Source: an uncultured Gammaproteobacteria bacterium
GTDB lineage: Bacteria > Patescibacteriota > Patescibacteriia > UBA9934 > CAZDDW01
Length of the DNA: 37,388 nt
Direction of reading: 5' to 3'
NCBI GenBank assembly: GCA_964480695.1
Contig: CAYZPO010000002.1
Coordinates: 1 to 37,388, forward strand
In this document: in pieces, positions 1 through 21,960 of the stretch
Position numbering within the stretch: the first letter of the stretch is position 1
How the letters are laid out: the number at the start of each line of letters is the position of its first letter
Program-made: the position numbers and the translations under genes
The notes under the pieces: model-generated
Seen by the model: the letters and a program-made list of their open reading frames with translations, nothing else
What the model was told of the DNA's origin: nothing
Databases searched by the model: none

Positions 1-3000
1 TCTTCTGGAGACATTAGCATTGCTCAGGGAACTGACTACAGTAGTGGAGATGATTTGACTTTAGGAGGTAGCGGAACCTGTACTCTTACCATGACCAATG
101 CTGCAACTTTAACCTCATTGACTATTTTAGCTAATGCTACAGTGAGTCATGCGGCCGAAGCTTCGGCTGGAGTGGACATTACTACTACAGGAGACTTAAC
201 GATCAACGCCGATGCTTCGATTAATACCAATGGTCTAGGTTGTGCTGCTGCCAGAGGTCCGGATGCGGATAATGTTTGTAGTGATGCTGGAACCGGGTCA
301 TCGGGTGGCGCAGGTTATAATGCTAGTGGTGGAGCTGGACACGGTGGTGCTGGCGGAGCTGGAACAGGAAGTGCTGGCGGAGCTGCTTACGATAGCGCTA
401 CAAATCCAGTTCGTTTTGGGGCTGGATCAGGTGGAACTGCTTGGGGTGCTGGTGAACCTGGTGGTGGCTTAATTAAGCTCGCTGTTTCCGGAAACATGTC
501 TCATTCCGGAACTATTACTGCAGATGGGGATGATGGGGCAAATCGAGGTAACCCTCCTGGTGGTGGAGCTGGCGGTTCAATTAACGTTGCAGTTACAGGA
601 ACCATGGCCGGATCCGGAACTTATTCGGCCAAAGGAGGAGATGGTGATGCTGATGGTGGTAAAGAAAGTGGTGGAGGTGGGGGTGGAATAATTGTCATCT
701 CTCACGCCGGCGGAACTGTCTCTTATAGCAGCTCTGATTTTGATGTTACTGGTGGTACTCGTCCGAATGATACTGTTCATGGAACATCAGGTTCTGTATA
801 TGTGAAAGACACCTCAGCATCCGCGGTTTCAATTTTTGGTGGCTTTACCTATGACGGCTCAGATTTTGATACAGGGCTTACTTCCTGGATTATGGACAGT
901 GGTGCCACTGCTCAGACCTGTTCTAGTGGGACTAGTCCAGTCTTTGATGATGTAACCAATTTGACTATTGGTGGAACTTTGGATTGTTCTGGGGCTGATG
1001 CTTTTACTTTTGGAGCAACAAATGTAACTTTCCTTGATAATGCGTCTGTCTCTGTTGGTGGAAACACAACTGTTACTGCAAGCACAGATTTAACCATGGG
1101 AACAGGGGTGAGTATAACGATCTCTGGTGTTGGTTCTGACCTTGATTTTACTATTGCGGATAGTGATGATCAGGTTTGGACAGATATGACTGTGACTGGG
1201 CCAGCAGAAGGGATATTTACCATGGACGATGAAATTGATCTTGAATTAGCTGGTACAACAGCGTTGGATACCAGTGTTCAATTTACTGCCTTAACTGGCT
1301 TTACAATTGGGGCCAGTGCTTCGATTAATGCTGATGAAAAAGGGTGTCGAGCGCCAGCAGCTGGGGCTCATGGGTGGGGCCCGAATGGTTCAAATGTTTG
1401 TAGTGAGAGCGGTTCAGGTCATTCTGATGGTGGTGGATATGTTGGAACTGGTGGTGGTGGGCATGGTGGAAACGGTGGAGATGGTTGGGGTGGTGGAATG
1501 ACTGGAGGTACTGGTGGTTATGATACAACAGCGGCTCCTGTTTTGTTTGGTGCTTCTGCTGGGGGAAGCATATCTTATGCAGGGCAATCAGGTGGTGGAG
1601 TTGTTCATCTAGATGTTACCGGAAACATGACTTGGAATGGGGCTATCTCTGCTGAAGGAGATGATGCACAGGCTAGAAATTCCAACCGAGCTCCGGGGGG
1701 CGGTGCTGGTGGATCAGTTTATATTACAGTTAACGGTACTGTTTCTGGAACTACTGGGTCTCTTTCTGTGGCCGGTGGTGACGGAGAAGATGGGAACGGG
1801 TCAATTGAGGGCGGAGGCGGAGGCGGAGGTCTTACTGCTGTTGAATATGAAATTGACTCCACTTCGTTTCTCAGTGGTCTAACTAGTGCTGGGGTGGCTC
1901 CTGGTGGAGACGGCGGTCCAAATGGAGAAACAGACACTGCTGATGATGGAGTTAATGGAACCTTGACTCTTACAGCACTGCTTGCTTTTTCCTCTGCACA
2001 ATATTTAGACACTAATTCAGACGGACAGGTCGATCGGGTTGATGTGACTTTTACAAAAAATATTACCTTAGATGAATGCGATGTTGCTGACTATACTTTT
2101 GGTGGAGCTGATGCTGGAACGATTGCTGTTGCTAGTTGTGCAACTTCCGGAGCTGATCTGCAATTAACAATTTCCAATGCCCCAGCCAGTGATACTAATC
2201 TAACCCTAACTTGGGCTTACACTGCAGCCAATGGCACAGCCAATTCAATTCACGATGGTGCTGGAACTAATTTGGGCGATGTTTCAGCCCAAACACTTGA
2301 TGATGCCGCAGCTCCGGTTTCTACAGCTTATGCCTATAAGGATACAGGTGGTGACGGTCAGGTTGACCGTTTTGATGTCACTTTTACTGAGAACATTGCC
2401 CAGGATGAGTGTGAGGCCGGGGATTTCACGATTGGCGGAGCGGATGCTGGTACGATCGCAGTTGCCTCGTGTGCGACTTCGACCACGGATTTGCAACTTA
2501 CAGTATCTAATGCCCCAGCAGGTGATACTAATTTGACCCTAACTTTAGCCTACACCGCCGCTAATGGCACAGCAGATTCACTTGATGACGCGGACGGAAA
2601 TGCAGTGGGCAACATCACGGCCCAGAGCTTGACTGATGCTGCGGCTCCGGTGTCAACTGCCTACGCTTACAAAGATACGGATGCGGATGGTCAGGTTGAT
2701 CGTTTTGATATTACTTTTTCTGAAGACATCGCTTACGATGAATGTGATGCTGCCGACTACACAGTCGGCGGAGCTGATGCCGGAACTATTGCCGTGGCTT
2801 CGTGTGGAAACTCAGGAGCCGATCTCCAGCTGACCGTATCTAACGCTCCAGCCGGGGACACGAATTTAACCTTGACTTTAGCCTACACCGCAGCCAACGG
2901 TACCGCTGACTCTTTGGATGATACTGCCGGTAACGCTGTCTCTGATATCTCTGCCCAAAGTTTGACCGACGCCGCCGCTCCAGTAATTACCACGTTTACT

Positions 3001-6000
3001 TATCAAGATAATGATGGTGATGGAAAAGTTGATGCTGTTACTGCAGGTTTTTCAGAAACGGTTACAGCAGCCTCAGTTCTTCGAGCAGCGGACCTGACCC
3101 TGACTAATGTCGGAGATTTCACCAGTGCTGCCTATGGCTCAGCTACTGATGACCTGATTACCGGATCAGTGTCTAGTGTTAAAGTCAATTTAGGAACTGA
3201 AGCTTCAGTGGTTGATACATTTGAAGATTCAGGTAATATCGCTATTTCCTCACAAAACAACTTTTCACTCACTGACGGAACAACCACCAACAATACTCTG
3301 GGAGCTCAGACCCAAGCCAGCTTTGCTGATGGAGTTGCTCCGGTTTCGACTGCGTATTCGTATAAAGATGTGAATGGTGATGGTCAAGTCGATCGATTCG
3401 ATATCACTTTCTCTGAAAACATTGCCCAAGATGAATGTGAGGCTGGCGACTACACAGTTGGTGGAGCTGATGCTGGTACGATCGCTGTGGCCTCGTGTGC
3501 TACCTCGACTACAGATCTGCGACTAACCGTGTCCAATGCCCCGGCCAGCGACACTAATCTAACCTTGACTTGGGCCTATACAGCCGATAATGGAACAGCA
3601 GATTCGCTTGATGACGCGGCTGGTAATGGTGTGACTGATATTACAGCTCAAAGTTTAACTGATGCTGCAGCACCTGTTTCTACCGCATATTCTTATTTAG
3701 ATACAGACGCAGATGGCCAAGTAGATCGGTTTGACGTAACCTTTACGGAAAATATTGCTTACGACGAGTGTGACTCAGCTGACTACACGGTCGGAGGTGC
3801 AGATGCTGGTTCGATTGCTGTTGCCTCATGTGCAGCGTCAACGACTGATCTACGACTAACTGTGTCCAATGCACCAGCAGGAGATACTAATCTCACTCTG
3901 ACCTTAGCTTACACGGCTGCCAACGGAACCGCAGATTCAGTTGACGATGCAGCCGGCAATGCGGTTTCAGATATCTCAGCCCAGAGTTTGACTGATGCAG
4001 CTGCTCCAGTAATTACCACGTTTACATATCAAGATGCAGATGCCGACGGTAAAGTGGATCAAATTCAAGCCACGTTCTCAGAGACTGTTACAGCCGCTTC
4101 GGTTCTGCGACCAAACGACCTTAACTTAACTGACGTTGGTGACTTTACCTCTGCCGCTTTTGGCTCAGATACCACTGACGCAATCTCAGGATCCGTAACC
4201 ACGGCAACACTTACTCTTGGAACTGAGGCTTCAGTGATTGATACTGTTGATGGGTCAGGCACATTAGCCATTTCAACTCAGAATGGTTTCTCGCTCACTG
4301 ACGGCACAACCACTAATACTACTCTTGGTGCCCAAACCCAAGTTTCTTTTGCTGACGGCGCTGCACCGATTATTACTGACTTTACTTACCAGGACAATGA
4401 CAGTGATGGAAAGATTGATCGTGTGGTCGCCACCTTTTCAGAAACTGTGACTGCAGCTTCTGTTCTTCGACCAAACGATTTGAACCTAACTAACGTCGGA
4501 GACTTCACTAGCGCAGCTTTTGGAGCTGACACCACTGACGCGATCAGCGGTTCAGTCAGCTCAGCCACGATTACATTAGGAACCGAGGCTTCAGTAGTGG
4601 ATACTAATGAGGGAAGTAGCAACATCGCCATCTCAACCCAGAACGGATTCTCACTCACTGATGGAACAAACACAAATACGACCCTGGGAGCACAAAGCGG
4701 AGCAACGTTTACAGATGGTGCTTCACCAGTATCAACCGCTTATTCATATCTGGACACTGGCGGTGACGGTCAGATAGATCGTTTTGATCTGACTTTTTCA
4801 GAAAATATTGCTTATGACGAATGTGACGCGGCTGACTACACTGTTGGCGGTGCTGATGCTGGATCAATCGCGGTTGCTTCATGTGCGGCCTCAACAACAG
4901 ACTTACAGCTGACCGTGTCCAATGCACCGGCGAGCGATACGAATTTGACTTTGACTTTGGCTTATACGGCTGCCAACGGAACTGCGGATTCGCTTGACGA
5001 CGCAGCTGGTAATGCGGTAGCTAACATTTCTGCTCAGAGTCTGACCGACGCAGCTGCCCCTGTACTTTCAGCTCAGACTTATGAAGACTCAGATAATAAC
5101 GGCACAGTTGACCGAGTGACATTAACCTTGACCGAGGCGGCTTCAACACAGACAGCTGTGATCGGAGATTTTACTTATGTTGCTCAGGATATCACTGATT
5201 CAGTACTTGCTTCAGGAACACTTTCATATCCAGACACGTCTACAGTACGTCTTGTTCTCGGAACTGCAGGTGATTCTGGTATCACTAGTCACACCACAGC
5301 TCCAACCATTGCTTACACTGACGGCGGAGCAACTGCCATCGCTGACGCTGCTGGTAATCAATTGGCAACTTTTGGAACTACCAACTTGTCTGACGGTGCA
5401 GCTCCAGTAATTACAGACTTTACTTACCAGGACAATGATGGAGATGGAAAAACAGACAGAGTGGTAGCCACGTTCTCGGAAACGGTGACTGCAGCTTCTG
5501 TTCTTCGACCTAATGATTTAAATCTAACCAACGTCGGAGACTTCACTAGCGCGGCTTTTGGCTCGGATACTACTGACGCTATTTCAGGTTCAGTTTCCAC
5601 AGCCACTCTTACTCTTGGAACCGAGGCTTCCGTGGTCGACACTGCTGAAGACTCAGGAAACATCGCTATCTCATCTCAAAACGGCTTCTCCTTGACGGAT
5701 GGGACAAACACTAATACTACCTTAGGCGCTCAAACTCAAGCTTCCTTTACAGATGGAGCAGCTCCTTTGTCTACAGCATATTCATATTTAGACACAGATA
5801 CAGATGGACAAGTAGACAGGTTTGACGTCACCTTTAGTGAAAATATAGCCTATGATGAATGTGATACTGCAGACTACACTGTTGGCGGTGCTGATGCTGG
5901 ATCAATCGCGGTTGCTTCATGCGCTAGTTCAACAACAGATCTCAGACTTACAGTGTCTAACGCCCCAGCTGAAGACACAAATTTAACCTTAACTTTGGCT

Positions 6001-9000
6001 TATACAGCAGCTAATGGAACAGCCAACTCTTTAGATGACGCTGCTGGTAACGCCGTGGCTGATATCTCAGCTCAGAGTTTGACTGATGCTGCTGCTCCTC
6101 AACTTATCTCTCAAACCTATGACGACTCAGATGCTAATGGCACAGTGGATCGTGTAACTTTGACTTTGTCTGAAGCTGCATCAACACAGACTGCCGTGAT
6201 CGGAGACTTCACTTACGTTGCTCAGGATATTACTGGTTCGGCTTTGGCTTCTGGGACTTTGTCGTATCCAACCACTTCGACCATACGACTGGTTCTTGGA
6301 ACAGCCGGCAACTCTGGAATCACTGGACATACTACTGCGCCAACCATTGCGTACACTGACGGTGGAGCCACTGCAGTCGCTGATGCTGCTGGTAACCAGC
6401 TAGCAACTTTTGGAACCACTAACTTGACTGATGGTGCTGCTCCGGTGATTACAGACTTCACTTATCAAGATAATGATGGAGATGGAAAGATTGATCGGAT
6501 GGTAACCACGTTCTCAGAGACCGTAACTGCAGCTTCTGTTCTTCGACCAAACGATCTGAACCTAACTAACGTCGGAGACTTCACTAGTGCAGCTTTCGGG
6601 TCTGATACGACTGACGCTATTTCCGGATCTGTGACTACAGCCACACTCACTCTTGGAACTGAGGCTTCGGTAGTAGATACTAATGAAGGATCTAGTAACA
6701 TTGCTATTTCCAGCCAAAATGGATTCTCGTTGACAGATGGAAATAATACCAACACCACTCTTGGAGCGCAGACACAAGCTTCATTTACAGATGGTGCGTC
6801 ACCGATTTCTACGGCTTACGCGTACAAAGACACTAACGGTGATGGTCAGGTGAATCGGGTTGATGTCACTTTTTCCGAGAACATTGCTCAGGATGAATGT
6901 GAAGCCGGGGACTATGCCTTTGGTGGAGGAGATGCTGGAAGTATTGCTGTGAGTTCTTGCGCAACTTCAACCACTGATCTTCAGCTTACGATTTCCGATG
7001 CTCCTGCTAATGATACTAATTTGACTCTAACTTGGGCGTACGACAAAGAGGGAACTACTGATGATTCGCTTGACGACGCGGCTGGTAACGCCGTGGCTGA
7101 TATCTCAGCTCAGAGTCTGACTGACGCAGCCGCTCCGATTGTTACAGCTCAGGAATACCAAGATTCAGATGCTAATGGAACAGTAGATCGTGTGGTGCTG
7201 ACTTTGTCCGAGGCGGCATCGACTCAAACGGCCGTGATTGGTGACTTTACTTATGCTGCCCAGGATATTACTGGATCTGCTTTGGCTTCAGGAACCTTGT
7301 CGTACCCAACAACTTCGACCGTGCGTCTTGTTTTGGGAACTGCAGGCAACTCTGGAATCACTGGACATACTACTGCGCCGACTATCGCCTACACCGACGG
7401 CGGGGCTACGGCAGTTGCTGATGCTGCTGGTAACCAGCTAGCAACTTTTGGGGCAACGAACTTGTCTGACGCTGCTACTCCAGTAATTACTGACTTTACG
7501 TATCAAGACAACGACGGTGATGGAAAGATTGATCGCGTGGTAACCACGTTCTCCGAGACTGTAACTGCAGCTTCCGTGCTCCGACCAAATGATTTGAACC
7601 TAACTAACGTCGGAGACTTCACTAGCGCAGCTTTTGGCTCGGATACTACTGACGCTATTTCCGGATCCGTGACTACAGCTACACTCACTCTTGGAACCGA
7701 GGCTTCCGTGGTCGACACTGCTGAAGACTCAGGCAACATCGCTATCTCATCCCAGAACGGATTCTCACTCACTGATGGAACAAACACGAACACTACTCTG
7801 GGAGCGCAGACACAGGCTAGTTTTACTGACGGCGCAGCTCCAATTTCCACAGCCTATGCCTATAAAGATCTGCTCGGTGATGGGCAGATTGAAACGGTGG
7901 AAGTGACCTTCTCAGAAAACATTGCTTATGACGAATGTGAAGCCGGGGACTATGCCTTTGGTGGAGGAGATGCTGGAAGTATCGCTGTTTCTGGATGTGC
8001 TACTTCAGGCACAGCTTTGCGTTACACTATTTCAAATGCTCCGGCTAGCGACACCAATCTAGCTCTGACTTGGGCATACGACACTGATGCCGGAACCTCT
8101 GGATCAGTTGATGACGCTGCTGGTAACGCTGTGGCTGACATTTCGGCTCAGAGTTTGACTGATGCAGCAGCTCCAATGTCTACTGCTTACAGTTACAAAG
8201 ATACTGATGCTGATGGTCAGGTTGATCGCTTTGATATCACTTTTACTGAAAACATTGGTCAGGACGAATGTGAAGCTGGTGACTTTACTATTGGCGGAGC
8301 TGATGCTGGTACAATTGCGGTTGCCTCATGTGCGACTTCAACTACAGATCTGCAGCTAACCGTGTCTAATGCTACAGCTGACGATACAAATTTGACCTTA
8401 ACTTGGGCTTATGACCAAAGTGCGGGTACAGCCGACTCATTAGACGATGCTGCTGGCAATGCTGTAGTAGATGTCTCAGCCCAGCCCATTTCAGATGGCG
8501 CTGCACCTCAGATTACGGATTTTACTTATCAAGATAATGATGGTGACGGAAAGATCGATCAGGTGGTTGCTACATTCTCAGAAACCGTAACCGCAGCTTC
8601 GGTTCTTCGTCCTGCAGATCTGAACTTAACCAACGTCGGAGACTTCACTAGCGCGGCCTTTGGTTCTGACACCACGGACGCTATTTCCGGATCTGTGACT
8701 ACAGCTACACTCACTCTTGGAACCGAGGCTAGTGTTGTAGACACCAATGAAGGTTCAAGTAACATCGCCATTTCTTCACAGAACAACTTCTCGCTGACTG
8801 ACGGCAACAACACCAACAATACGCTTGGAGCGCAGACCGTGGCTAGTTTCACTGACGGCGCAGCTCCAGTTTCGACCGCGTATTCATATCTAGACATTAA
8901 TGGTAACGGCCAGGTCGATCGTTTTGATATCACTTTCTCAGAGAATATCGCTCAAGATGAATGTGAAGCCGGAGATTTTGCTGTTGGTGGGGCTGACGCT

Positions 9001-12000
9001 GGTTCGATTGCTGTGGCTTCCTGTGCCACCTCAACTACTGATCTCAGACTTACCGTGTCCAACGCTCCGGCCAGTGACACTAATTTGACGTTAACCTGGG
9101 CTTACGACAAAGAAGGCAATGTTGATGATTCACTCGATGACGCTGCTGGCAACGCGGTAGCTGACATCTCAGCCCAGACTTTGGCTGATGCAGCTGCTCC
9201 AGTATCAATCGCATATTCTTACAAAGACACGAACACTGATGGACAGATTGACCGTTTTGATATCACGTTCACAGAAAATATCGCTTACGACGAATGTGAT
9301 GCTGCGGACTATACCGTTGGTGGAGCTGACGCTGGAAGTATTGCCGTTAGCTCTTGTGCAGCCTCAACAACTGATCTTCAACTAACAGTCACTGGTGCTA
9401 CGGCCGATGATACTAATTTAACTTTAACTTTGGCTTACACTGCAGCCAATGGTACGGCAGACTCGCTCGATGACGCTGCTGGCAATGCTGTGGTTGATAT
9501 CTCTGCTCAAAGTTTAGATGATGATGCAGCACCGTTCATGACCGCTGCGGTTACAGCTGACAATGATAGTGACGGACAGATCGATCGGGTTGTTGTAACC
9601 TTGTCCGAGGATTTGGATGAGAATAGTGTAGCCGGTGCTGACTTTACTGTGGGTAGCTTTACGGTTAGCTCAGCTTCAGAAACTTCTGCTGGCGTGGTTA
9701 CGATTGTTCTAACTGAATCCGGAGGTGCAGACACGGACGCAACTCCAACCGTAACCATTGCTGGTACGATTACTGATGCTGCTAATGATATTGATGCGAC
9801 CTCAGGAACTGAAGCCTCGACTGATGGGGCCGCACCTGTGTCGAGCACCTATGCTTACAAAGATACTGATGCTGACGGAACCGTGGATCGAGTAGATGTA
9901 ACTTTCTCAGAAAACATTGCTCAGGACGAGTGTGAAGCCGGGGACTACGCTTTTGGTGGTGGAGATGCCGGAAGTATCGCTGTAAGTTCTTGTACTGTGT
10001 CTGGGGATGATCTTCAACTCACTATCTCTGATGCTACAGCCTCGGATACCAATCTCACCCTGACTTGGGCCTATGACAAAGAGGGAACCACAGATGATTC
10101 GTTAGATGACGCAGCCGGTAACGCTGTAGCTGACATCTCGGCTCAGACTTTGGATGATGCAGCTGCTCCTTTAATCTCGGCTCAACAGTATGAGGATTCT
10201 GATAATAACGGAACTGTGGACCGAGTTACTCTGACGTTAACTGAGGCGGCTAGCACTCAGACCGCAGTGATCGGAGATTTCACTTATGTTGCTCAGGATA
10301 TTACTGGCTCAGCTCTGGCTTCAGGAACTTTGTCCTATCCAACCACCTCGACTGTGCGCCTTGTCCTGGGGACTGCAGGTAACTCTGGAATTACTAGCCA
10401 CACCACTGCACCGACAATTGCTTACACAGATGGTGGGGCCACGGCAGTAGCTGATGCAGCTGGTAATCAATTGGCTACCTTTGGAACTACTAACTTGACT
10501 GACGGTGCTGCTCCGGTGATCACTGACTTTACGTACCAAGATAATGATGGCGATGGAAAGATCGACCGTATCGTGGCCACATTCTCGGAAACAGTAACGG
10601 CAGACTCGGTCCTTCGCGCTGCTGATCTGACTTTAACTAACGTTGGAGATTTTACTAGCGCAGCTTTTGGATCTAACACCACTGATCTGATTACTGGTTC
10701 TGTGAGTTCAGTCACTGTCACACTTGGAACCGAGGCAACTGTGGTCGATACTAATGAAGGCTCAAGCAACATTGCCATTTCATCACAAAACAATTTTTCA
10801 CTGACTGAAGGAACTAACACGAATAACACTCTTGGTGCTCAGTCACAAGCCAGCTTTACTGATGCAGCTGCTCCAGTGTCTACGGCTTACGCTTACAAAG
10901 ATACGGACTCAGATGGAACCGTGGATCGAGTTGATGTTACTTTCTCAGAAAATATTGCTCAGGATGAATGTGAGGCAGGAGATTATGCTTTTGCTGGGGG
11001 TGATGCTGGCACGATTGCTGTTAGTACTTGTAATGCTGCAGGCGATGACCTTCAACTGACGATCTCTAACGCTACAGCTTCAGATACTAATCTCACTTTG
11101 ACCTGGGCTTACGATGCTAGTGCTGGAACCGCGAGCTCTCTCGACGACGCTACTGGTAATGCTGTGGCTGACATCTCAGCTCAGACACTCACAGACGCGG
11201 CAGCTCCAGTGTCTACGGCTTACGCTTATAAAGATACAGACGCTGATGGTCAAGTGGATCGTGTAGACGTGACCTTTACTGAGAATATCGCTTATGACGA
11301 GTGCGAGGCTGGAGACTACGCGTTTGCCGGGGATGACGCTGGTACGATTGCCGTCAGTTCTTGTGCTGTGTCTGGCGACGATCTTCGTCTCACGATTTCT
11401 AACGCTACTGCAGATGACACCAATCTCACCCTGACCTGGGCCTACGACAAAGAGGGAACCACAGATGATTCATTAGACGACGCAGCTGGTAACGCTGTAG
11501 CTGATATTTCGGCTCAGACCCTAACTGATAGTGCGGCACCGTTCATGACCGCTGCGGTTACAGCTGATAATGATGGTAACGGACAGATCGATCGAGTTGT
11601 TGTGACCTTGTCTGAAGATCTTACTGAAGGGACTGTAGCTGGGGCAGATTTCACTGTTGGTAGTTTCACAGTCAGTTCGGCTTCAGAAACTTCTGCTGGC
11701 GTGGTTACGATTGTTCTGACCGAGTCGGGAACAGCGGACACTGATGCAACCCCGACGGTCACGCTAGCTGGAAGCATCGATGATACTGGATCAAACTCAG
11801 CCACTTCTGGAACCGAGGCTCCAACAGATGGAGCGGCTCCGGTATCCAGCGCTTACAGTTATAAAGATACTAACTCAGACGGAACTGTGGATCGAGTTGA
11901 TGTGACCTTTTCAGAAAATATTGCTCAGGATGAATGTGAAGCAGCAGATTACGCTTTTGCTGGAGATGATGCTGGGTCAATTGCTGTAAGCTCTTGTGCT

Positions 12001-14193
12001 GTGTCTGGAGACGATCTTCAGTTGACTATATCTAATGCCACGGCTTCTGATACGAGTCTGACTTTAACCTGGGCTTATGACAAAGAAGGCGATGTTGATG
12101 ATTCACTTGATGACGCTGCGGGTAACGCAGTAGCTGACATTTCGGCCCAAACCCTGGTCGACGCCGCTGCTCCGGTGAAGGTTTCTCAGAGTTATAAAGA
12201 CACTGATGTTGATGGAGTGGTGGACCGAGTTGATATTACTTTCACAGAAAACATTGCTTACGATGAATGTGAAGCCGGAGACTTTACTTTTGCTGGAGAC
12301 GATGCTGGAAGTATTGCTGTAGCCTCTTGCGCCGCCTCAACTACAGACTTGCAACTCACTATCTCTGACGCTACTGCTGACGACACTAACCTAACCCTAA
12401 CCCTGGCTTACGCTGCAGCTAACGGCACGGCTAGTTCACTTGATGACGCGGCCGGAAATGCGGTGGCTGACATAACTGCTGCTTCGATTACTGATGCAGC
12501 TGCTCCATTCATGACCGCTGCGGCAACTGGAGACAACGATAGTGATGGTCAGATTGATCGGGTTGTTGTAACCTTGTCTGAGGATTTGGATGAAAGTACT
12601 GTGGCTGGAGCAGACTTTACAGTCGCTGGGTTTGTAGTCAGTTCGGCTTCAGAAACTTCTGCTGGCGTGGTCACGATTGTCTTAACTGAGTCTGGAAGTG
12701 CAGACACTGACGCAACTCCAACTGTAACTTTAGCTGGAAGCATCGATGATACCGGATCAAACTCAGCCACTTCTGGAACCGAGGCTCCAACAGATGGAGC
12801 GGCTCCGGTATCCAGCGCATACAGTTACAAAGATACAGACTCAGACGGAACTGTGGACCGAGTTGATGTTACTTTCTCTGAGAATATCGCTCAGGACGAG
12901 TGTGAAGCCGGAGATTATACTTTTGGAGGTGCAGACGCTGGCACGATTGCTGTCAGTTCCTGTGCGGTATCCGGAGACGATCTCAGGCTCACGATCTCTA
13001 ACGCCACCGCTAACGATACCAGTCTAACTCTAACTTGGGCTTACGACAAAGAGGGAACCACAGATGATTCGCTCGACGATGCTGCTGGCAATGCCGTGGC
13101 TGATATCTCAGCTCAAACCGTGACTGATAGTGCTGGACCTTTGATTACCAGCACTACTCCAGAATCTGGTGAAGACAATTACCAACGAACCGAGGATATC
13201 GTGATTAATTTTACAGAAGCGATTGACACTAGTTCGTTTACCGTGTCTTTCTCACCAGACCCTGATGGTGTTTCTACTTCTTGGAGCAACTCAAACGCTA
13301 CGGCAACTATCGCTCATAACATCTTCCAATCAACGACTAATTATACGATCACAGTGACCGCAGCTCCAGATACTTCAGCTAATAGTTTTGTCGGAGCTAT
13401 AAGTGGGGTGACTCATCCGATCCTTTTGACCTCAGCCGCTGCTGGGGGAGTAAAACCTCCTGTTGTTGTTTATGTTCCTTATGTTCCAGTAGATAATTCA
13501 GACGACGACGATGAGACTACAGGGCCTGATACTGATACAGATACGGAAACTACAGATTCAACTGAGGAAGAAACAGAAACCGAGGAAACTGAGGAGACCG
13601 TGACTGGTACCATGGATTATGAACTTGATCAAGATTCAAATAAATGGAATTCAGATCAAACTGGTTATCGACCAAATACAATTAATGAAGCCCCATCTCC
13701 AGTGACTGGTGAAGAAGAGGATGTGAATGAGGTTTGGTCAGGAATGTTTATTTCTAGTCCTTCGTTCTCAACTGTGTACTACATTGATGATAATTTGCTT
13801 CGTCGACCGTTCTTTAATGCTCAAATCTTCTTTACCTGGGCCAGTTCTTGGGATGTGGTGATTGAAGTTACAGATGCTACACTCTCGACGTTAATTATGG
13901 GCGCACCGATTCTGCCACAACCTGGCGTGGTCTTGGTTAAGATTCAATCTTTGCCACAAGTCTACGCTCTTGAATATAATCCTAGTGAACCACTTAAACC
14001 GATTCTACGTTGGATTACGGATGAGGAAACTGCCATTGTTCTTTACGGAGTCAATTGGGCTGACTACGTGATTGACATTGATCCAACTTTGTTTGCCCGA
14101 TTTGAAACTAGCGGAGAAATTATTGATGAAGCGAGTGACTATTCGATTGATCAAGATATAACTAGAACAAGATTAGAATTAGCCTCATATTAA
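1..14193 (+). CDS. Giant secreted/surface repeat protein; 5' end lies outside the window (more than 4,730 aa)
   Basis: Frame 1 is open from nt 1 (SSGDISIAQGTDYSSGDD precedes the TTG at 55 used by the ORF track). Stop TAA at 14191-14193. Contains duplicated Gly-rich modules, 33 tandem ~105-120 aa modules each opening with a DxDxDGxxD-type loop, a terminal SbsA/Big_5-like Ig module (GPLITSTTPESGEDN...FTVSFSPDPDG), an acidic D/E/T linker and a ~190 aa C-terminal domain. Confidence 0.9.
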   Translation, partial: SSGDISIAQGTDYSSGDDLTLGGSGTCTLTMTNAATLTSLTILANATVSHAAEASAGVDITTTGDLTINADASINTNGLGCAAARGPDADNVCSDAGTGSSGGAGYNASGGAGHGGAGGAGTGSAGGAAYDSATNPVRFGAGSGGTAWGAGEPGGGLIKLAVSGNMSHSGTITADGDDGANRGNPPGGGAGGSINVAVTGTMAGSGTYSAKGGDGDADGGKESGGGGGGIIVISHAGGTVSYSSSDFDVTGGTRPNDTVHGTSGSVYVKDTSASAVSIFGGFTYDGSDFDTGLTSWIMDSGATAQTCSSGTSPVFDDVTNLTIGGTLDCSGADAFTFGATNVTFLDNASVSVGGNTTVTASTDLTMGTGVSITISGVGSDLDFTIADSDDQVWTDMTVTGPAEGIFTMDDEIDLELAGTTALDTSVQFTALTGFTIGASASINADEKGCRAPAAGAHGWGPNGSNVCSESGSGHSDGGGYVGTGGGGHGGNGGDGWGGGMTGGTGGYDTTAAPVLFGASAGGSISYAGQSGGGVVHLDVTGNMTWNGAISAEGDDAQARNSNRAPGGGAGGSVYITVNGTVSGTTGSLSVAGGDGEDGNGSIEGGGGGGGLTAVEYEIDSTSFLSGLTSAGVAPGGDGGPNGETDTADDGVNGTLTLTALLAFSSAQYLDTNSDGQVDRVDVTFTKNITLDECDVADYTFGGADAGTIAVASCATSGADLQLTISNAPASDTNLTLTWAYTAANGTANSIHDGAGTNLGDVSAQTLDDAAAPVSTAYAYKDTGGDGQVDRFDVTFTENIAQDECEAGDFTIGGADAGTIAVASCATSTTDLQLTVSNAPAGDTNLTLTLAYTAANGTADSLDDADGNAVGNITAQSLTDAAAPVSTAYAYKDTDADGQVDRFDITFSEDIAYDECDAADYTVGGADAGTIAVASCGNSGADLQLTVSNAPAGDTNLTLTLAYTAANGTADSLDDTAGNAVSDISAQSLTDAAAPVITTFTYQDNDGDGKVDAVTAGFSETVTAASVLRAADLTLTNVGDFTSAAYGSATDDLITGSVSSVKVNLGTEASVVDTFEDSGNIAISSQNNFSLTDGTTTNNTLGAQTQASFADGVAPVSTAYSYKDVNGDGQVDRFDITFSENIAQDECEAGDYTVGGADAGTIAVASCATSTTDLRLTVSNAPASDTNLTLTWAYTADNGTADSLDDAAGNGVTDITAQSLTDAAAPVSTAYSYLDTDADGQVDRFDVTFTENIAYDECDSADYTVGGADAGSIAVASCAASTTDLRLTVSNAPAGDTNLTLTLAYTAANGTADSVDDAAGNAVSDISAQSLTDAAAPVITTFTYQDADADGKVDQIQATFSETVTAASVLRPNDLNLTDVGDFTSAAFGSDTTDAISGSVTTATLTLGTEASVIDTVDGSGTLAISTQNGFSLTDGTTTNTTLGAQTQVSFADGAAPIITDFTYQDNDSDGKIDRVVATFSETVTAASVLRPNDLNLTNVGDFTSAAFGADTTDAISGSVSSATITLGTEASVVDTNEGSSNIAISTQNGFSLTDGTNTNTTLGAQSGATFTDGASPVSTAYSYLDTGGDGQIDRFDLTFSENIAYDECDAADYTVGGADAGSIAVASCAASTTDLQLTVSNAPASDTNLTLTLAYTAANGTADSLDDAAGNAVANISAQSLTDAAAPVLSAQTYEDSDNNGTVDRVTLTLTEAASTQTAVIGDFTYVAQDITDSVLASGTLSYPDTSTVRLVLGTAGDSGITSHTTAPTIAYTDGGATAIADAAGNQLATFGTTNLSDGAAPVITDFTYQDNDGDGKTDRVVATFSETVTAASVLRPNDLNLTNVGDFTSAAFGSDTTDAISGSVSTATLTLGTEASVVDTAEDSGNIAISSQNGFSLTDGTNTNTTLGAQTQASFTDGAAPLSTAYSYLDTDTDGQVDRFDVTFSENIAYDECDTADYTVGGADAGSIAVASCASSTTDLRLTVSNAPAEDTNLTLTLAYTAANGTANSLDDAAGNAVADISAQSLTDAAAPQLISQTYDDSDANGTVDRVTLTLSEAASTQTAVIGDFTYVAQDITGSALASGTLSYPTTSTIRLVLGTAGNSGITGHTTAPTIAYTDGGATAVADAAGNQLATFGTTNLTDGAAPVITDFTYQDNDGDGKIDRMVTTFSETVTAASVLRPNDLNLTNVGDFTSAAFGSDTTDAISGSVTTATLTLGTEASVVDTNEGSSNIAISSQNGFSLTDGNNTNTTLGAQTQASFTDGASPISTAYAYKDTNGDGQVNRVDVTFSENIAQDECEAGDYAFGGGDAGSIAVSSCATSTTDLQLTISDAPANDTNLTLTWAYDKEGTTDDSLDDAAGNAVADISAQSLTDAAAPIVTAQEYQDSDANGTVDRVVLTLSEAASTQTAVIGDFTYAAQDITGSALASGTLSYPTTSTVRLVLGTAGNSGITGHTTAPTIAYTDGGATAVADAAGNQLATFGATNLSDAATPVITDFTYQDNDGDGKIDRVVTTFSETVTAASVLRPNDLNLTNVGDFTSAAFGSDTTDAISGSVTTATLTLGTEASVVDTAEDSGNIAISSQNGFSLTDGTNTNTTLGAQTQASFTDGAAPISTAYAYKDLLGDGQIETVEVTFSENIAYDECEAGDYAFGGGDAGSIAVSGCATSGTALRYTISNAPASDTNLALTWAYDTDAGTSGSVDDAAGNAVADISAQSLTDAAAPMSTAYSYKDTDADGQVDRFDITFTENIGQDECEAGDFTIGGADAGTIAVASCATSTTDLQLTVSNATADDTNLTLTWAYDQSAGTADSLDDAAGNAVVDVSAQPISDGAAPQITDFTYQDNDGDGKIDQVVATFSETVTAASVLRPADLNLTNVGDFTSAAFGSDTTDAISGSVTTATLTLGTEASVVDTNEGSSNIAISSQNNFSLTDGNNTNNTLGAQTVASFTDGAAPVSTAYSYLDINGNGQVDRFDITFSENIAQDECEAGDFAVGGADAGSIAVASCATSTTDLRLTVSNAPASDTNLTLTWAYDKEGNVDDSLDDAAGNAVADISAQTLADAAAPVSIAYSYKDTNTDGQIDRFDITFTENIAYDECDAADYTVGGADAGSIAVSSCAASTTDLQLTVTGATADDTNLTLTLAYTAANGTADSLDDAAGNAVVDISAQSLDDDAAPFMTAAVTADNDSDGQIDRVVVTLSEDLDENSVAGADFTVGSFTVSSASETSAGVVTIVLTESGGADTDATPTVTIAGTITDAANDIDATSGTEASTDGAAPVSSTYAYKDTDADGTVDRVDVTFSENIAQDECEAGDYAFGGGDAGSIAVSSCTVSGDDLQLTISDATASDTNLTLTWAYDKEGTTDDSLDDAAGNAVADISAQTLDDAAAPLISAQQYEDSDNNGTVDRVTLTLTEAASTQTAVIGDFTYVAQDITGSALASGTLSYPTTSTVRLVLGTAGNSGITSHTTAPTIAYTDGGATAVADAAGNQLATFGTTNLTDGAAPVITDFTYQDNDGDGKIDRIVATFSETVTADSVLRAADLTLTNVGDFTSAAFGSNTTDLITGSVSSVTVTLGTEATVVDTNEGSSNIAISSQNNFSLTEGTNTNNTLGAQSQASFTDAAAPVSTAYAYKDTDSDGTVDRVDVTFSENIAQDECEAGDYAFAGGDAGTIAVSTCNAAGDDLQLTISNATASDTNLTLTWAYDASAGTASSLDDATGNAVADISAQTLTDAAAPVSTAYAYKDTDADGQVDRVDVTFTENIAYDECEAGDYAFAGDDAGTIAVSSCAVSGDDLRLTISNATADDTNLTLTWAYDKEGTTDDSLDDAAGNAVADISAQTLTDSAAPFMTAAVTADNDGNGQIDRVVVTLSEDLTEGTVAGADFTVGSFTVSSASETSAGVVTIVLTESGTADTDATPTVTLAGSIDDTGSNSATSGTEAPTDGAAPVSSAYSYKDTNSDGTVDRVDVTFSENIAQDECEAADYAFAGDDAGSIAVSSCAVSGDDLQLTISNATASDTSLTLTWAYDKEGDVDDSLDDAAGNAVADISAQTLVDAAAPVKVSQSYKDTDVDGVVDRVDITFTENIAYDECEAGDFTFAGDDAGSIAVASCAASTTDLQLTISDATADDTNLTLTLAYAAANGTASSLDDAAGNAVADITAASITDAAAPFMTAAATGDNDSDGQIDRVVVTLSEDLDESTVAGADFTVAGFVVSSASETSAGVVTIVLTESGSADTDATPTVTLAGSIDDTGSNSATSGTEAPTDGAAPVSSAYSYKDTDSDGTVDRVDVTFSENIAQDECEAGDYTFGGADAGTIAVSSCAVSGDDLRLTISNATANDTSLTLTWAYDKEGTTDDSLDDAAGNAVADISAQTVTDSAGPLITSTTPESGEDNYQRTEDIVINFTEAIDTSSFTVSFSPDPDGVSTSWSNSNATATIAHNIFQSTTNYTITVTAAPDTSANSFVGAISGVTHPILLTSAAAGGVKPPVVVYVPYVPVDNSDDDDETTGPDTDTDTETTDSTEEETETEETEETVTGTMDYELDQDSNKWNSDQTGYRPNTINEAPSPVTGEEEDVNEVWSGMFISSPSFSTVYYIDDNLLRRPFFNAQIFFTWASSWDVVIEVTDATLSTLIMGAPILPQPGVVLVKIQSLPQVYALEYNPSEPLKPILRWITDEETAIVLYGVNWADYVIDIDPTLFARFETSGEIIDEASDYSIDQDITRTRLELASY
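203..1845 (+). repeat. Duplicated Gly-rich module inside the giant CDS (copy 1 ~203-705, copy 2 ~1324-1845)
   Basis: Copy 1: INADASINTNGLGCAAARGPDADNVCSDAG...GGGAGGSINVAVTGTMAGSG...GGGGGGIIVISH. Copy 2: INADEKGCRAPAAGAHGWGPNGSNVCSESG...GGGAGGSVYITVNGTVSGTTG...GGGGGGGLTAVEY. Motifs occur in the same order, and each copy has one Cys pair. Confidence 0.75.
1990..13140 (+). repeat. In-frame tandem array of 33 Ig-like modules: 18 type A, 8 type B, 4 type C, 3 type D
   Basis: Read from the translation. Type A: APVSTAY.YKDT..DGQVDR.DVTF.ENIA.DECE..D......DAG.IAV.SC...(~105 aa, two Cys). Type B: APVITDFTYQDNDGDGKIDRVV.TFSETVTAASVLRPNDLNLTNVGDF...(~121 aa). Type C: AP...AQ.YEDSD.NGTVDRVTLTL.EAASTQTAVIGDFTYVAQDITGS...(~117 aa). 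Type D: APFMTAAVTADNDSDGQIDRVVVTLSEDL...(~104 aa). Order: AAAB AABB ACB ACB ACB AAB AAD ACB AAD AAD A. Confidence 0.9.
4723..7836 (+). repeat. Higher-order tandem repeat: three consecutive A-C-B units of exactly 1,038 bp each
   Basis: The unit starts I located in the DNA are 4723, 5761, 6799 and 7837, spaced by 1,038 nt each time. Long identical nucleotide runs are shared between units, for example acgtcggagacttcactagcgc and cttggaaccgaggcttccgtggtcgacactgctgaagactcagg near 5531/7611 and 5618/7691. Confidence 0.85.
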
Positions 14194-14194
14194 T

Positions 14195-15688
14195 ATGGTC
14201 AGAAAAAGAAAGTTAGCGATCCTAATCGCTTTTATCGCCGTGATTTTAGTTGCGGCCGCTGTGATGGTTTATTTATTAATGACAGCTGAACCTGAGGCTG
14301 AGGTTCCGGATTGTGATATCAACGGTGACGGGGTAATTGATGAACGTGAGAATCGTTTGTGTTTTGAAGCTGACATTTTGGGGACCAATCAGACAGATGT
14401 GCAGGTTGAAGAAGAAGGTACGATTGACCTACGCTTACCATCCGAGGGAGCAGGTGGAGGAACCTTGGCTGTTCGTTTATACATTCCAGAAAACCCTCGC
14501 TATGATGAAGGAGCACCAGTTATTGTTTGGGTGCCAGGCGGATATGAAATGAAAGGGATTAATCATGATCTTCCATCGAACGTGGATGATGTAATTATAG
14601 CCACATTTATTTTTCCAGGAGTAACAGATGAGTGGTCAGGTTTTTATTCTGACGGCGAATATGATTGGCGTGGCGAGAACTGTATCCGTGCTTTGGCTGA
14701 CGTGATCTTGTTCGCTGCTGGTGAACTTGAGGATTCAGAAGGAAACACCATTGACGATTTGTCTCCGGTTCCTGTGATTCACGACAACATCGGTGTGATT
14801 GGTGTGTCAAATGGTGGAAACTTGCCAGTAGCTGCCGCAGCTTTGTATGGTGACGAACTTACTGATTACTTGCGTTATATCATCCAATGGGAAACCCCAG
14901 TGTCAAGTCAGGTGGCTAATCGTGACTTCGGTCGCGTCTGGGTTAAAGAAGGTGGTCCAAAAAACGACTACTTTAATCCACGCTACTCCGGATATGGAGA
15001 TTACGAGTTTGCTGTTAGCTATGATGATCTGGCTTATGATCCGACTCAGGAATGGCATCCAGTTTTTCATGACGGTAACGGGGACGGAGTTTATACCACC
15101 TCTAGTTATATGCAGCTCCCAATTCAAGGTCCTGACTATGATATGGATGGTGTAATGTCGCTGGATGAAGATTTTCCTTTGGACGGATATCAAGGCGGAC
15201 CTGATGGTGAGACTTGGTTTTTCTCACGTCCCGTAACTCATGCCATGCGTGATCAAAACATCTTTGTTGATTATGGTTGGCCAGACGATATTGCTAAACC
15301 TGGCGAGGCAGATTATTACTGGGATATCCGCGAGTCAGTTTATATGTACGATGAAGCCCTTGCTAATATTCCTGATCTTGAGGCCATGATTTTGGCCGGT
15401 CTAGTTGATCATGTTCAAACTAACTCTGAGAAACCACACATTCGTCAGGCTTTTGAGGGTTGGTTGGATAATGGTACGTCCTGGGTTCAGATTAATCCTA
15501 ATCCTGAGTATATGGTCGAAGCGTATCCTGGATATCGAAGGCAGGCTAACGACTTACCGGATAATATGCCGAACAAAGCCCCTCATGACTGGGCTGACGC
15601 TGAGGCTTATGCTTTTGCTGAAGAGATCGAAACCGCAGCTTATCAGCTTGCCGGGGTTTATCAAATGATGGACCGCGCCCAACAGTAG
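14195..15688 (+). CDS. Membrane-anchored alpha/beta-hydrolase-fold protein (putative esterase/peptidase), paralog 1
   Basis: ATG lies 1 nt after the giant gene's stop. N-terminal TM helix (LAILIAFIAVILVAAAVMVYLL), dockerin/EF-hand-like DINGDGVID, oxyanion-type VIVWVPGG, nucleophile elbow GVSNG in IGVIGVSNGGN, and Asp motif LAGLVDHV. Confidence 0.6.
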   Translation: MVRKRKLAILIAFIAVILVAAAVMVYLLMTAEPEAEVPDCDINGDGVIDERENRLCFEADILGTNQTDVQVEEEGTIDLRLPSEGAGGGTLAVRLYIPENPRYDEGAPVIVWVPGGYEMKGINHDLPSNVDDVIIATFIFPGVTDEWSGFYSDGEYDWRGENCIRALADVILFAAGELEDSEGNTIDDLSPVPVIHDNIGVIGVSNGGNLPVAAAALYGDELTDYLRYIIQWETPVSSQVANRDFGRVWVKEGGPKNDYFNPRYSGYGDYEFAVSYDDLAYDPTQEWHPVFHDGNGDGVYTTSSYMQLPIQGPDYDMDGVMSLDEDFPLDGYQGGPDGETWFFSRPVTHAMRDQNIFVDYGWPDDIAKPGEADYYWDIRESVYMYDEALANIPDLEAMILAGLVDHVQTNSEKPHIRQAFEGWLDNGTSWVQINPNPEYMVEAYPGYRRQANDLPDNMPNKAPHDWADAEAYAFAEEIETAAYQLAGVYQMMDRAQQ

Positions 15689-15718
15689 GGGGTCAGGTCT
15701 TGATATCTGATTTTAAGC
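15687..15718 (+). repeat. Copy 1 of a 32-bp perfect long-range inverted repeat (agggggtcaggtcttgatatctgattttaagc)
   Basis: This is the exact reverse complement of 31803-31834. It overlaps the TAG stop of the upstream gene and ends 8 nt before the next ATG. Its 3' end is part of a 16-bp palindrome, ATTTTAAGCTTAAAAT (15710-15725). Confidence 0.95.
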
Positions 15719-21710: not shown

Positions 21711-21752
21711 GTTCCTTCCTTCGGGCAAGTCCGCCCAACTCCCTCAAACGCA

Positions 21753-21791
21753 ACGCCCTAGTGGTCCGACCCACCAGGGCGTTTGTAGTTT
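21753..21791 (+). terminator. Rho-independent terminator after the lipoprotein gene
   Basis: ACGCCCTAGTGG-tccgac-CCACCAGGGCGT (11 of 12 positions paired) followed by TTGTAGTTT. Confidence 0.6.
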
Positions 21792-21909
21792 AAGAGGGGA
21801 GGAGAAGGGCTAGATGAGCTAGAAGAGAAAGAAGGGAAGAGGGGATTTCAGAGATGATAACAATGGATAACCGGCCGGTGAGCTACTGTCGAAACTTACG
21901 CTCGGGTGT

Positions 21910-21952
21910 ACACAAAGAACATCCGGTCGGCTATTCTTTGTGTGCGTGTTTT
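21910..21952 (+). terminator. Second plus-strand terminator-like hairpin
   Basis: Perfect 10-bp stem ACACAAAGAA/TTCTTTGTGT with a 14-nt loop, then GCGTGTTTT. It lies back to back with the minus-strand terminator at 21961-21994. Confidence 0.4.
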
Positions 21953-21960
21953 GGTCTAAT

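Follow-up and report, generated by a model that had tools for sequence, protein, structure and literature searches.

What kind of protein is encoded by a reading frame that runs for more than 14 kb without a stop at the start of a contig from an uncultured bacterium? The stretch analyzed here, referred to as the window, comprises 37,388 nucleotides (nt) of the 39,220-nt contig CAYZPO010000002.1 (assembly GCA_964480695.1), and its first 14,193 nt form one forward-strand open reading frame (ORF) that is still open at nt 1. A model-made annotation based on the letters alone (the original prediction) had described a single ORF open from nt 1 through 14193, and the frame 1 translation bears this out, with 4,730 codons and no internal stop. 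We conclude with moderate confidence that the product, referred to as the giant protein, is a Sec-exported monomeric surface fibre of the fibrillar-adhesin type, belonging to a probably patescibacterial (Uhrbacteria/Parcubacteria-like) genome.

The domain order of the giant protein is two Gly-rich modules, 33 modules in tandem, a Big_5 immunoglobulin-like (Ig-like) domain, an acidic linker and a C-terminal domain, with the following boundaries (aa, amino acid residues).

1..14193, + strand: giant ORF, frame 1, open at nt 1, stop codon at 14191-14193
1..1974 (aa 1-658), + strand: N-terminal Gly-rich beta-solenoid region, the presumed distal tip, from structure prediction and internal BLASTP
1975..13131 (aa 659-4377), + strand: array of 33 Ig-like modules, from a loop regular expression and MAFFT
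13126..13386 (aa 4376-4462), + strand: 34th Ig-like domain, Pfam Big_5 (PF13205), lacking the DxDxDG loop
13408..13695, + strand: Pro-rich and then strongly acidic low-complexity linker (VKPPVVVYVPYVPVDNSDDDDETTGPDTDTDTETTDSTEEETETEETEE...), from the translation
13696..13710 (aa 4566-4570), + strand: SPVTG motif just upstream of the C-terminal domain, from alignment
13726..14190, + strand: C-terminal domain of ~155-165 aa, defined with 27 homologues, candidate envelope anchor or sorting domain

The portion within the window has a mass of 474 kDa and an isoelectric point of 4.05, and it contains 14.8% Ala, 14.5% Thr, 11.6% Asp, 10.1% Gly and 43 Cys. Since aa 28 of the window translation aligns to aa 63 of a miniature homologue (P0264, below), only ~35 residues, essentially the signal peptide, are probably encoded upstream of nt 1. 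The whole, at ~4,770 codons, is a real gene.

A regular-expression search combined with MAFFT alignment returned exactly 33 consecutive modules in the order AAABAABBACBACBACBAABAADACBAADAADA. This confirmed the earlier count by eye of 33 modules in a row, 18 A, 8 B, 4 C and 3 D; the copies measure 111 aa each in family A, 120 in B, 115 in C and 100-101 in D. Module starts and one representative per family, all on the + strand, are as follows.

2308..2640: representative A (module 2, 111 aa), with loop DTGGDGQVD and Cys pair DEC...SC
1975, 2308, 2641, 3334, 3667, 4720, 5758, 6796, 7834, 8167, 8860, 9193, 9829, 10867, 11200, 11833, 12166, 12799: starts of the 18 A modules
4360..4719: representative B (module 8, 120 aa), from the B-family alignment
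2974, 4000, 4360, 5398, 6436, 7474, 8500, 10507: starts of the eight B modules
5053..5397: representative C (module 10, 115 aa), from the C-family alignment
5053, 6091, 7129, 10162: starts of the four C modules
9526..9828: representative D (module 23, 101 aa), from the D-family alignment
9526, 11533, 12499: starts of the three D modules

Each module begins with 'AAPV' and continues with a 7-residue strand, a loop of calcium-binding type and a strand reading 'R-V-x-V-T-F-S-E'. The 33 + 1 tandem domains stand back to back with no spacers between them, and the array is strongly acidic, with 15.2% D+E against 2.1% K+R. In the alignment of the 18 A copies 34 columns are invariant, both Cys among them, and all 36 Cys of the array (18 x 2) lie in the 'DEC...SC' pairs of A modules, so that the pair is exclusive to this family as the original prediction had it. 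Because the pair is invariant in 18/18 A modules, because homologues carry paired Cys and because the window encodes a DsbA-like/VKOR pair, the two Cys of each A module would probably form a disulfide that stabilizes the rod; two Cys are present in 114 homologous modules and one in 37.

The four families had been listed as separate. Their counts stand, but within-protein hhalign comparisons show a single domain class: A aligned with C over the full length (probability 96.8%), with D over 85 columns (96.7%) and with B over the first 34 residues only (95.6%). Homology among A, C and D is thus full-length, and the match to B, like that to Big_5, is confined to strand A, the loop and strand B. Judged by these profiles, A, B, C and D are diverged members of one superfamily. 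The remark that the families could not be named holds as well, since one module of each family gave no Pfam match even at E ≤ 10. PDB sequence searches with the A profile and with an 85-row stalk profile found nothing significant, the sole PDB sequence match to the module profile being the Ca loop of a dockerin at E 0.2. Pfam matches to SICA_C (39.9 bits, 0 stretches passing) and to a Rad26-like family were rejected as artefacts of composition or of summed repeats.

The fold of the stalk was predicted with AlphaFold2 (AF2) for aa 3065-3622 (A22-D23-A24-C25-B26), with 85 aligned rows of window modules and homologues as input. Mean pLDDT (the per-residue confidence) is 79.6 and pTM (the predicted global score) is 0.66. 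Modules A24, C25 and B26 lie mostly above pLDDT 90 (range 85-97 in B26), D23 is all-beta at 60-79 and A22 reaches ~55-60; the five-module model as a whole is all beta, with 7-9 strands per module. Foldseek against the PDB returned Chlamydomonas FMG-1B as the best match (E 3e-12), four fragments of Aureispira GhpA (E 1e-5 to 3e-4), the S-layer (surface-layer) protein SbsC (E 1.5e-4) and Ig domains of NCAM2, N-cadherin, desmoglein and LdtMt2. The likeness to cadherins is generic Ig-like (E ~1e-4, TM-score < 0.2), and low TM-scores are no surprise in a comparison that treats five flexibly linked domains as a single body. On the predicted model this result identifies a fold class, the tandem Ig-like rod, and not kinship. 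The earlier description of the modules as Ig-like, to be checked by whether a beta-sandwich is predicted, thus agrees with the all-beta model and with its matches to tandem Ig-like rods.

The last module had been likened to SbsA/Big_5 domains. A Big_5 domain is indeed present (PF13205, E 2.7e-7, 31.7 bits against a cut-off of 23.6), but as a 34th domain outside the 33. The A, B, C and D modules do not reach the Big_5 cut-off (one module per family, no match at E ≤ 10), and the A family gave no match to the Big_5-like domain when shallow profiles were compared. A deeper profile of 283 modules, homologues included, aligned with the profile of the Big_5-like domain at an hhalign probability of 94% over 33 columns, and the matching segment of the modules is 'D-x-A-A-P-V-I - strand A - loop - v-TFSE'. 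On our reading, the modules probably form an unnamed branch of the Big_5-type Ig class, their A-B segment having turned into a DxDxDGxxD loop; the homology is demonstrated for the N-terminal third alone.

At the other end of the chain, the C-terminal domain has 27 relatives (37-52% identity) and is always found at the very C-terminus. Sequence and profile searches, with the 27 homologues run against Pfam, gave it no match in Pfam, NCBIfam or the PDB. All carriers with a taxon-specific name are Patescibacteria, one being named just 'bacterium' and the rest unnamed. In several relatives the domain stands behind a subtilisin (PF00082) and in one behind PF10342. Because it is terminal and is shared with other exoproteins (secreted subtilisins), we propose it as a candidate envelope anchor. 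A motif of the form [SPAG]PxTG occurs in 32 of 59 carriers of the domain, 21 of which have SPVTG, and in these 32 the SP[VLI]TG motif lies 10-20 residues ahead of the domain. SP[VLI]TG resembles a sortase motif of the C. difficile SrtB type, but a globular domain follows it: in the giant protein SPVTG lies 165 aa from the end, with the globular domain next and no transmembrane (TM) segment or tail. No sortase gene was found within the window. A sortase gene lies 8 kb from one relative (L005:1-323).

Relatives of the giant protein share its ends and differ in the number of modules. The miniature version was recovered by a tblastn scan of a genome collection with the N-terminal 400 aa.

L001:9815-13531 (CAZIDX010000002.1, 186 kb): miniature homologue P0264, 1,238 aa

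P0264 consists of a Sec-type signal peptide, two Gly-rich modules 61% identical to those of the window, one A-type module with the Cys pair, Big_5, another Ig domain, the acidic linker and the same C-terminal domain. It belongs to a metagenome-assembled genome (MAG) labelled 'uncultured Gammaproteobacteria' while carrying the Patescibacteria-type C-terminal domain; the contig could be mis-binned or mislabelled, or the gene could have been transferred laterally. A two-module version is present in Candidatus Uhrbacteria GCA_018673485.1 (L004:6680-10712) as two overlapping ORFs. These ORFs, of 455 aa and 903 aa, overlap by 47 nt, and the same split occurs in a second, 368-kb assembly; it could reflect a frameshift, a sequencing error common to both assemblies or programmed recoding.

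When 1.84 billion representative proteins were searched with an A-family hidden Markov model (HMM), 384 matched at E ≤ 1e-3 and 129 at E ≤ 1e-10. Two of these matches share all three end domains, P0245 (2,623 aa, 14 modules) and P0246 (3,855 aa, 23 modules), giving module numbers of 1 (P0264), 2 (L004), 14 (P0245) and 23 (P0246) among relatives with the same ends. Other matches to the A-family HMM, giant proteins with lengths of 5,000-7,700 aa, come from other lineages and have the module alone in common, and two JGI contigs (L006, L007) carry at least 10 modules each and break inside the array. The 33 modules of the window are the largest complete-looking array of this architecture among those found. 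Module orders are not colinear between relatives, so the arrays expand and shuffle independently. The nearest named relatives of all three protein parts are Patescibacteria (Uhrbacteria, Falkowbacteria, Parcubacteria and 'Patescibacteria group').

These data are consistent with the following arrangement. The giant protein would be exported by Sec, as judged from the signal peptides of its homologues, and its C-terminal domain of ~160 aa would hold it on the cell envelope. The stalk would consist of 34 Ig-like domains of predicted fold, 33 of them from one unnamed superfamily. The repeats of MpAFP region II (RII) measure 190 Å per four (PMC4083281), and by analogy with this spacing, 4.75 nm per repeat, the stalk would be ~160 nm long. 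The Gly-rich double beta-solenoid would form a binding head at the far end, with a polysaccharide or a cell surface as its most likely target. The orientation is supported by the homologues, which start with signal peptides and in which the C-terminal domain, common to other exported proteins, is always terminal. The original prediction had spoken of an attachment organelle, which overstates the case for a single Sec-type surface protein; attachment of an episymbiont is a reasonable hypothesis.

The same data could be taken to describe a structural envelope or matrix protein (S-layer-associated, sheath or biofilm scaffold) in which the Ig array spaces a layer and the solenoid self-associates. 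Big_5/SbsC-type Ig domains do occur in S-layer proteins, and SbsC is among the stalk matches (E 1.5e-4); the self-associating beta-helix protein Ag43 is among the weak matches of the tip, RsaA shows a weak Foldseek similarity, and the acidity and Ca loops would also suit a Ca-mediated lattice. We nevertheless judge this reading unlikely, as 34 serial domains with two distinct end domains in one chain are the layout of a fibre and not of a lattice subunit. Moreover, a module number varying from 1 to 33 among relatives is tolerable for a spacer but not for a lattice, and Pfam finds no SLH or other S-layer anchoring domain in the giant protein.

The proposed head of the surface fibre was examined by structure prediction. 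As the original prediction had stated, two Gly-rich modules precede the array, and internal BLASTP identifies them as homologous copies (41% identity over 254 aligned positions, E 3e-54); their cores span aa 4-244 and aa 382-625, with a conserved Cys pair in each copy. The AF2 model of aa 1-658, from a 60-row alignment, has a mean pLDDT of 90.1 and a pTM of 0.90 and shows the short-strand pattern of a solenoid. Foldseek against the PDB gave a best E of 0.045 with probabilities ≤ 0.14, and the weak matches are all parallel beta-helices: SepA, EspC, Ag43, pertactin, EtpA, PfbA, lyases of polysaccharide lyase family 6 (PL6), polygalacturonases and tailspikes. No Pfam match (E ≤ 10) or significant PDB sequence match was obtained for the N-terminal region. 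The only named model to touch a Gly-rich module is AgmC_N of Myxococcus (NCBIfam NF047640, aa 419-617, E 1.9e-5), at 23.8 bits far below its cut-off of 275. Parcubacteria, along with other Patescibacteria, supply the foremost relatives of the Gly-rich modules (40% identity at 85% query coverage), and further ones are found among exported proteins of Verrucomicrobiota, Elusimicrobiota, Lentisphaerota, Armatimonadota and Bdellovibrio.

The tip model also resembles 'collagen-like'/PA14 proteins of Bathycoccus, Ostreococcus, Orpheovirus and Pandoravirus viruses (E 2e-5 to 9e-3, ~20% identity), which possibly reflects a shared Gly-rich solenoid fold or an effect of composition only. These viral Foldseek matches, to Gly-rich 'collagen-like' giant-virus models at E values down to 2e-5, were judged composition-driven and uninformative.

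The solenoid might instead be a polysaccharide lyase or hydrolase, or a wall-degrading head, tethered on a long stalk and used for attacking or feeding on a host. PL6 alginate lyases, polygalacturonases, inulin lyases and phage tailspikes are all among its weak matches, the same C-terminal domain carries subtilisins in relatives, so that the lineage displays enzymes in this way, and a link with the degradation of cell walls has been drawn for giant proteins from other ultra-small bacteria (bioRxiv 10.1101/2023.11.21.568195). All of these structural matches have E ≥ 0.045 and probability ≤ 0.14, however, and indicate merely a parallel beta-helix; no catalytic family is found in Pfam or NCBIfam even at E ≤ 10, and the most conserved positions of the Gly-rich region are glycines, not an acidic/basic catalytic set. 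A tethered enzyme is accordingly rather improbable as an alternative to the binding head of a fibre.

The loop shared by the 33 modules was analyzed position by position. It starts at residue 12 of the module, after the first beta-strand, with D at position 1 in 33/33 modules, D or N at position 3 in 30/33, D or N at position 5 in 33/33, G at position 6 in 33/33, V or I at position 8 in 32/33, D at position 9 in 31/33 and R at position 10 in 29/33. The exceptions at position 3 are Gly in two loops and Leu in one. An acidic residue at position 12 is confined to A modules (17 with D, one with E). The pattern Dx[DN]x[DN]GxxD, which admits N at position 5 and demands D at position 9, fits 29/33 modules; these 29 occurrences compare with a mean of 0.16 (maximum 2) in 500 shuffles, ~180-fold over chance. 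The strict motif Dx[DN]xDG fits 24/33 loops. In 888 homologous modules of other organisms the loop is kept by 74% under the strict and 83% under the relaxed definition. The original prediction had each module opening with a DxDxDGxxD-type loop; the loop is present in all 33, but it follows the first strand and keeps to the strict motif in the 24 just given. The accompanying comparison with dockerin, EF-hand and thrombospondin type 3 (TSP3) sites fails, because DSSP on the AF2 model places a strand, not a helix, on either side. The loop is the connection of strands A and B (strand 217-223, loop 224-232, strand 233-238), and a second example is likewise flanked by strands (443-449 and 459-468). 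Pfam gave no EF-hand, dockerin or TSP_3 match in the giant protein.

The Dx[DN]xDG motif binds Ca2+ in a near-identical manner in at least twelve unrelated folds or families, including strand-flanked motifs at beta-propeller blade tips such as those of integrins (PMC3123361). From the 1-3-5-6-9 pattern, the flanking strands, the acidic chain and the retention of the loop in 888 homologous modules, we infer that the loops bind Ca2+, and regard this as well founded. Each loop would bind one Ca2+, and ~33 Ca2+ would stiffen or stabilize the very acidic rod. The candidate ligands all fall within one 9-residue loop of one module, making the predicted site self-contained, in a setting like that of integrin blades or of the Sdr B repeats; a domain-bridging site like those of cadherins or MpAFP RII is therefore not suggested by the sequence, and Pfam found no cadherin match in the giant protein. 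A likeness to giant adhesins rigidified by Ca had been noted at the outset, and the tip, stalk and anchor-like layout and the Ca motif agree with it. Strand A of an Ig-like domain leads from the N-terminal pole across to the other one. Given this topology, the A-B loop should lie at the pole that faces the next module, near the conserved linker '(T)D(A/G)-AAPV'.

Do the loops bind metal at all? They could form a conserved tight hairpin, with any rigidity coming from short linkers and packing, an account that is not exclusive of the other alternatives. It would explain why 9/33 loops depart from the strict motif, with Gly in two and Leu in one at position 3, and why an acidic residue stands at position 12, where EF-hands usually have their bidentate ligand, in A modules alone. 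It fits poorly with the retention of D1, [DN]5, G6 and D9 in 31-33 of 33 modules despite saturated synonymous sites, with the presence of the same loop in three quarters of 888 modules from other organisms and with the extreme acidity of the giant protein. The 1-3-5-(7)-9 spacing of ligands, furthermore, is that of known Ca hairpins (PMC3123361). We consider metal-free loops quite improbable and retain predicted Ca2+ binding as part of the fibre.

The DNA of the array was compared between copies. Within families the copies are 60-83% identical in nucleotide sequence (means: A 68.5%, B 73.9%, C 77.1%), and protein identity is higher, at 74-89% (A mean 74%). Exact direct repeats reach at most 65 nt anywhere in the gene. 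Because the copies have diverged in DNA, Tandem Repeats Finder reported only short Gly-codon repeats and no module-level array. The Nei-Gojobori proportion of synonymous differences (pS), at 0.63-0.74, is near saturation, and the ratio of nonsynonymous to synonymous change (dN/dS) has family medians of 0.11 (A), 0.07 (B) and 0.05 (C); the copies are therefore old duplicates, each under purifying selection. Duplication also proceeded by blocks, since the A-C-B blocks (modules 9-11, 12-14, 15-17, 24-26) and the A-A-D blocks (modules 21-23, 27-29, 30-32) show 67-77% DNA identity. The array would have arisen through ancient duplications, some of one module and some of a whole block (ACB, AAD), with every copy kept by purifying selection. 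The result is a long repeat protein with old, individually conserved copies, unlike the identical repeats of MpAFP. Short contigs from SRR24302411 and SRR8146443 are 99.95% identical to window positions 13678-15716, covering only the 3' end of the gene and not spanning the array; the organism recurs across sequencing runs.

Mis-assembly of near-identical repeats is very unlikely. An array length produced by repeat collapse, expansion or chimeric joining, as might be feared from a gene that is repetitive at the protein level, from related contigs that break within their arrays (L006, L007) and from coverage in other runs by short Logan contigs at the 3' end only, has a negligible chance of being correct, given a longest exact repeat of 65 nt, copies that differ by 17-40% in DNA, the lack of a module-level repeat in Tandem Repeats Finder, a frame open throughout 14.2 kb, purifying selection on every copy and module borders at exact codon multiples, each starting with 'AAPV'.

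The giant protein was compared with known surface fibres. Fibrillar adhesins have been defined as a class (PMC8286594; PMC9210967), and those of monoderm bacteria have the same polarity, with a signal peptide, an N-terminal head, a stalk of tandem beta-sandwich domains (~100-120 aa) and a C-terminal anchoring element. The giant protein has the tandem stalk (33 + 1 Ig-like domains) and a proposed head that is confidently predicted to be a solenoid and gave no significant match to a known adhesive domain; a signal peptide is seen in its homologues, and the C-terminal domain is the candidate anchor. A stalk in which each module has one Ca loop finds its nearest counterpart in SdrC, SdrD and SdrE of S. 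aureus, whose B repeats (110-113 aa) each carry a consensus EF-hand-type Ca2+ loop and are thought to be spacers (PMC3775735). The Sdr proteins differ in having 2-5 repeats against 33 modules, a head that is a DEv-IgG A domain against a Gly-rich beta-solenoid, and an LPXTG motif, TM segment and basic tail that are absent here; the stalk modules match neither CnaB nor SdrD_B in Pfam. More generally, sortase-anchored proteins have an LPXTG-type motif, a hydrophobic segment and a basic tail in their last ~50 residues, and the giant protein lacks this arrangement.

Adhesins of the RTX type (MpAFP/MpIBP region II, LapA and SiiE type) are likewise giant and contain a long run of Ig-like repeats of ~104-120 aa. 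In MpAFP, acidic residues and Ca2+ are proposed to make the chain a rod that projects the binding domain from the cell (PMC4083281). Its repeats are identical and Ca2+ bridges neighbours, whereas the copies here are 60-83% identical in DNA and the motif lies within one loop. RTX adhesins also have the opposite polarity, the tip of the giant protein being N-terminal, and no RTX nonapeptide repeats (no HemolysinCabind in Pfam), type 1 secretion signal or N-terminal retention module was found in it. In cadherins the inter-domain Ca motifs read DxNDN, LDRE and DxD; the linker here reads (T)D(A/G)AAPV.

In comparison with the Big_5 domains of the SbsA-SbsC kind, the 34th domain is a true member and the 33 modules share the start 'D-x-A-A-P-V...strand A - loop - strand B (v-TFSE)', with the A-B segment replaced by the DxDxDGxxD loop and no similarity detectable past the first third. 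The integrin/FG-GAP 'calcium blade' has the same 9-residue D-x-[DN]-x-[DN]-G-x-x-D hairpin between strands, once per unit; the integrin blade belongs to a propeller and the module to an Ig-like sandwich, homology is not claimed, and metal binding is predicted for the latter. The best structural matches of the predicted stalk, GhpA (PDB 9flu/9flp/9flw) and FMG-1B (9gos), at E 3e-12 to 3e-4, are very long extracellular tandem Ig-like fibres too. GhpA serves to catch prey cells. Sequence identity to the two is just 10-14%, and they differ in their ends, secretion route and oligomeric state, so the likeness is one of fold class only. Giant fibrillar surface proteins whose Ig-like stalk bears calcium loops are a known kind, and the particular parts of this one are new: no paper was found that describes the stalk module, the solenoid head or the C-terminal domain, and a literature search found nothing on the module family, on AgmC or on a C-terminal anchor domain of Patescibacteria.

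Several points weigh against a Ca-stabilized patescibacterial fibre. Nine of the 33 loops deviate from the strict motif, the predicted Ca2+ binding is argued from that motif, and the place of the loop relative to the module junction is deduced from Ig topology. For the tip, no adhesin gave a significant match in structure or in sequence (best E 0.045), and neither a TM segment, an LPXTG tail, SLH or LysM nor any further known anchor is present in the C-terminal domain. The assignment to Patescibacteria is probable on the names of homologues alone, and the closest relative from the single tblastn scan of the genome collection, P0264, is labelled Gammaproteobacteria. Finally, no conserved neighbour genes that would hint at function accompany the relatives in L001 and L004-L007.

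To our knowledge, the molecules of first contact are unknown for the uncultivated majority of Patescibacteria. The giant gene is a concrete and nearly complete candidate for such a molecule, and a fibre of ~160 nm would be comparable to the size of the cell. Cultivated Patescibacteria are attached to hosts, and several adhesins are needed for epibiotic growth in the one genetically tractable species, a saccharibacterium (PMC10633639). The three domain kinds of the giant protein have no counterpart in Pfam or NCBIfam, and the PDB contains no sequence related to them. The stalk module is rare (384 of the 1.84 billion representative proteins) and would add an Ig-like context to the folds that carry Dx[DN]xDG. 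Nearly half of fibrillar-adhesin-like proteins have no recognizable anchor (PMC8286594); the candidate C-terminal anchor fits this finding. Secreted proteases of this lineage have the domain too, and it could be the 'anchor' so far missing for the surface proteins of Patescibacteria.

A more far-reaching reading, which we hold to be unlikely, joins the three undescribed parts (Ca-hairpin Ig stalk, solenoid head and SPxTG-preceded sorting domain) into a fibre system largely confined to Patescibacteria. The C-terminal domain would replace LPXTG and a TM segment for fibres, proteases and other exoproteins, perhaps with sortase-like cleavage at SPxTG, and an ultra-small episymbiont would use the 33-module version as a fibre for capturing hosts at long range.

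Elsewhere in the window lie riboflavin genes and the coding sequences of RimK, a DsbA-like/VKOR pair, RNase J, Era, a tRNA methyltransferase, a family 2 glycosyltransferase (GT2), MurJ and alanyl-tRNA synthetase (AlaRS). A DUF6938 protein of the window is not adjacent to the relatives of the giant gene in L001 and L004-L007. Directly downstream of the giant gene, 14195-15688 and 15726-17117 (+ strand) encode two paralogues that are 29% identical and carry a TM anchor at the N-terminus; they have no Pfam or NCBIfam match and do not stand beside relatives of the giant gene. Both share 'IPENPRY.EGAP(V/I)I', and the first also carries a DCDINGDGVID loop. The two contigs from independent sequencing runs (L002, L003) both end exactly at window position 15716, before the second paralogue, which suggests strain variation or a repeat boundary.

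Positions 23033-23967 (+ strand) hold a 160-aa ORF with an N-terminal TM segment and the CxxC motif 'WWCPHCEDQ', directly upstream of a VKOR-family gene. The ORF has weak Pfam Thioredoxin matches (E ~0.02) and the VKOR-family assignment has E 2e-29; together they look like a DsbA-like/VKOR pair for extracytoplasmic disulfide formation, relevant to the Cys pairs of the giant protein. The preceding ~1.3 kb (~21730-23030) contain no ORF >97 aa and no Rfam or tRNA match, and Rfam and tRNA scans of the whole window were empty. The 2-kb bins over 20-23 kb reach the G+C maximum of the window (~0.51-0.52, neighbouring bins ~0.45-0.47). Further downstream, 30663-31808 (+ strand) encodes a 381-aa protein with TSP3 repeats, which carry a DxDxDG-type Ca motif, and a PKD domain; it is likely a second Ca-binding exported protein of the window.

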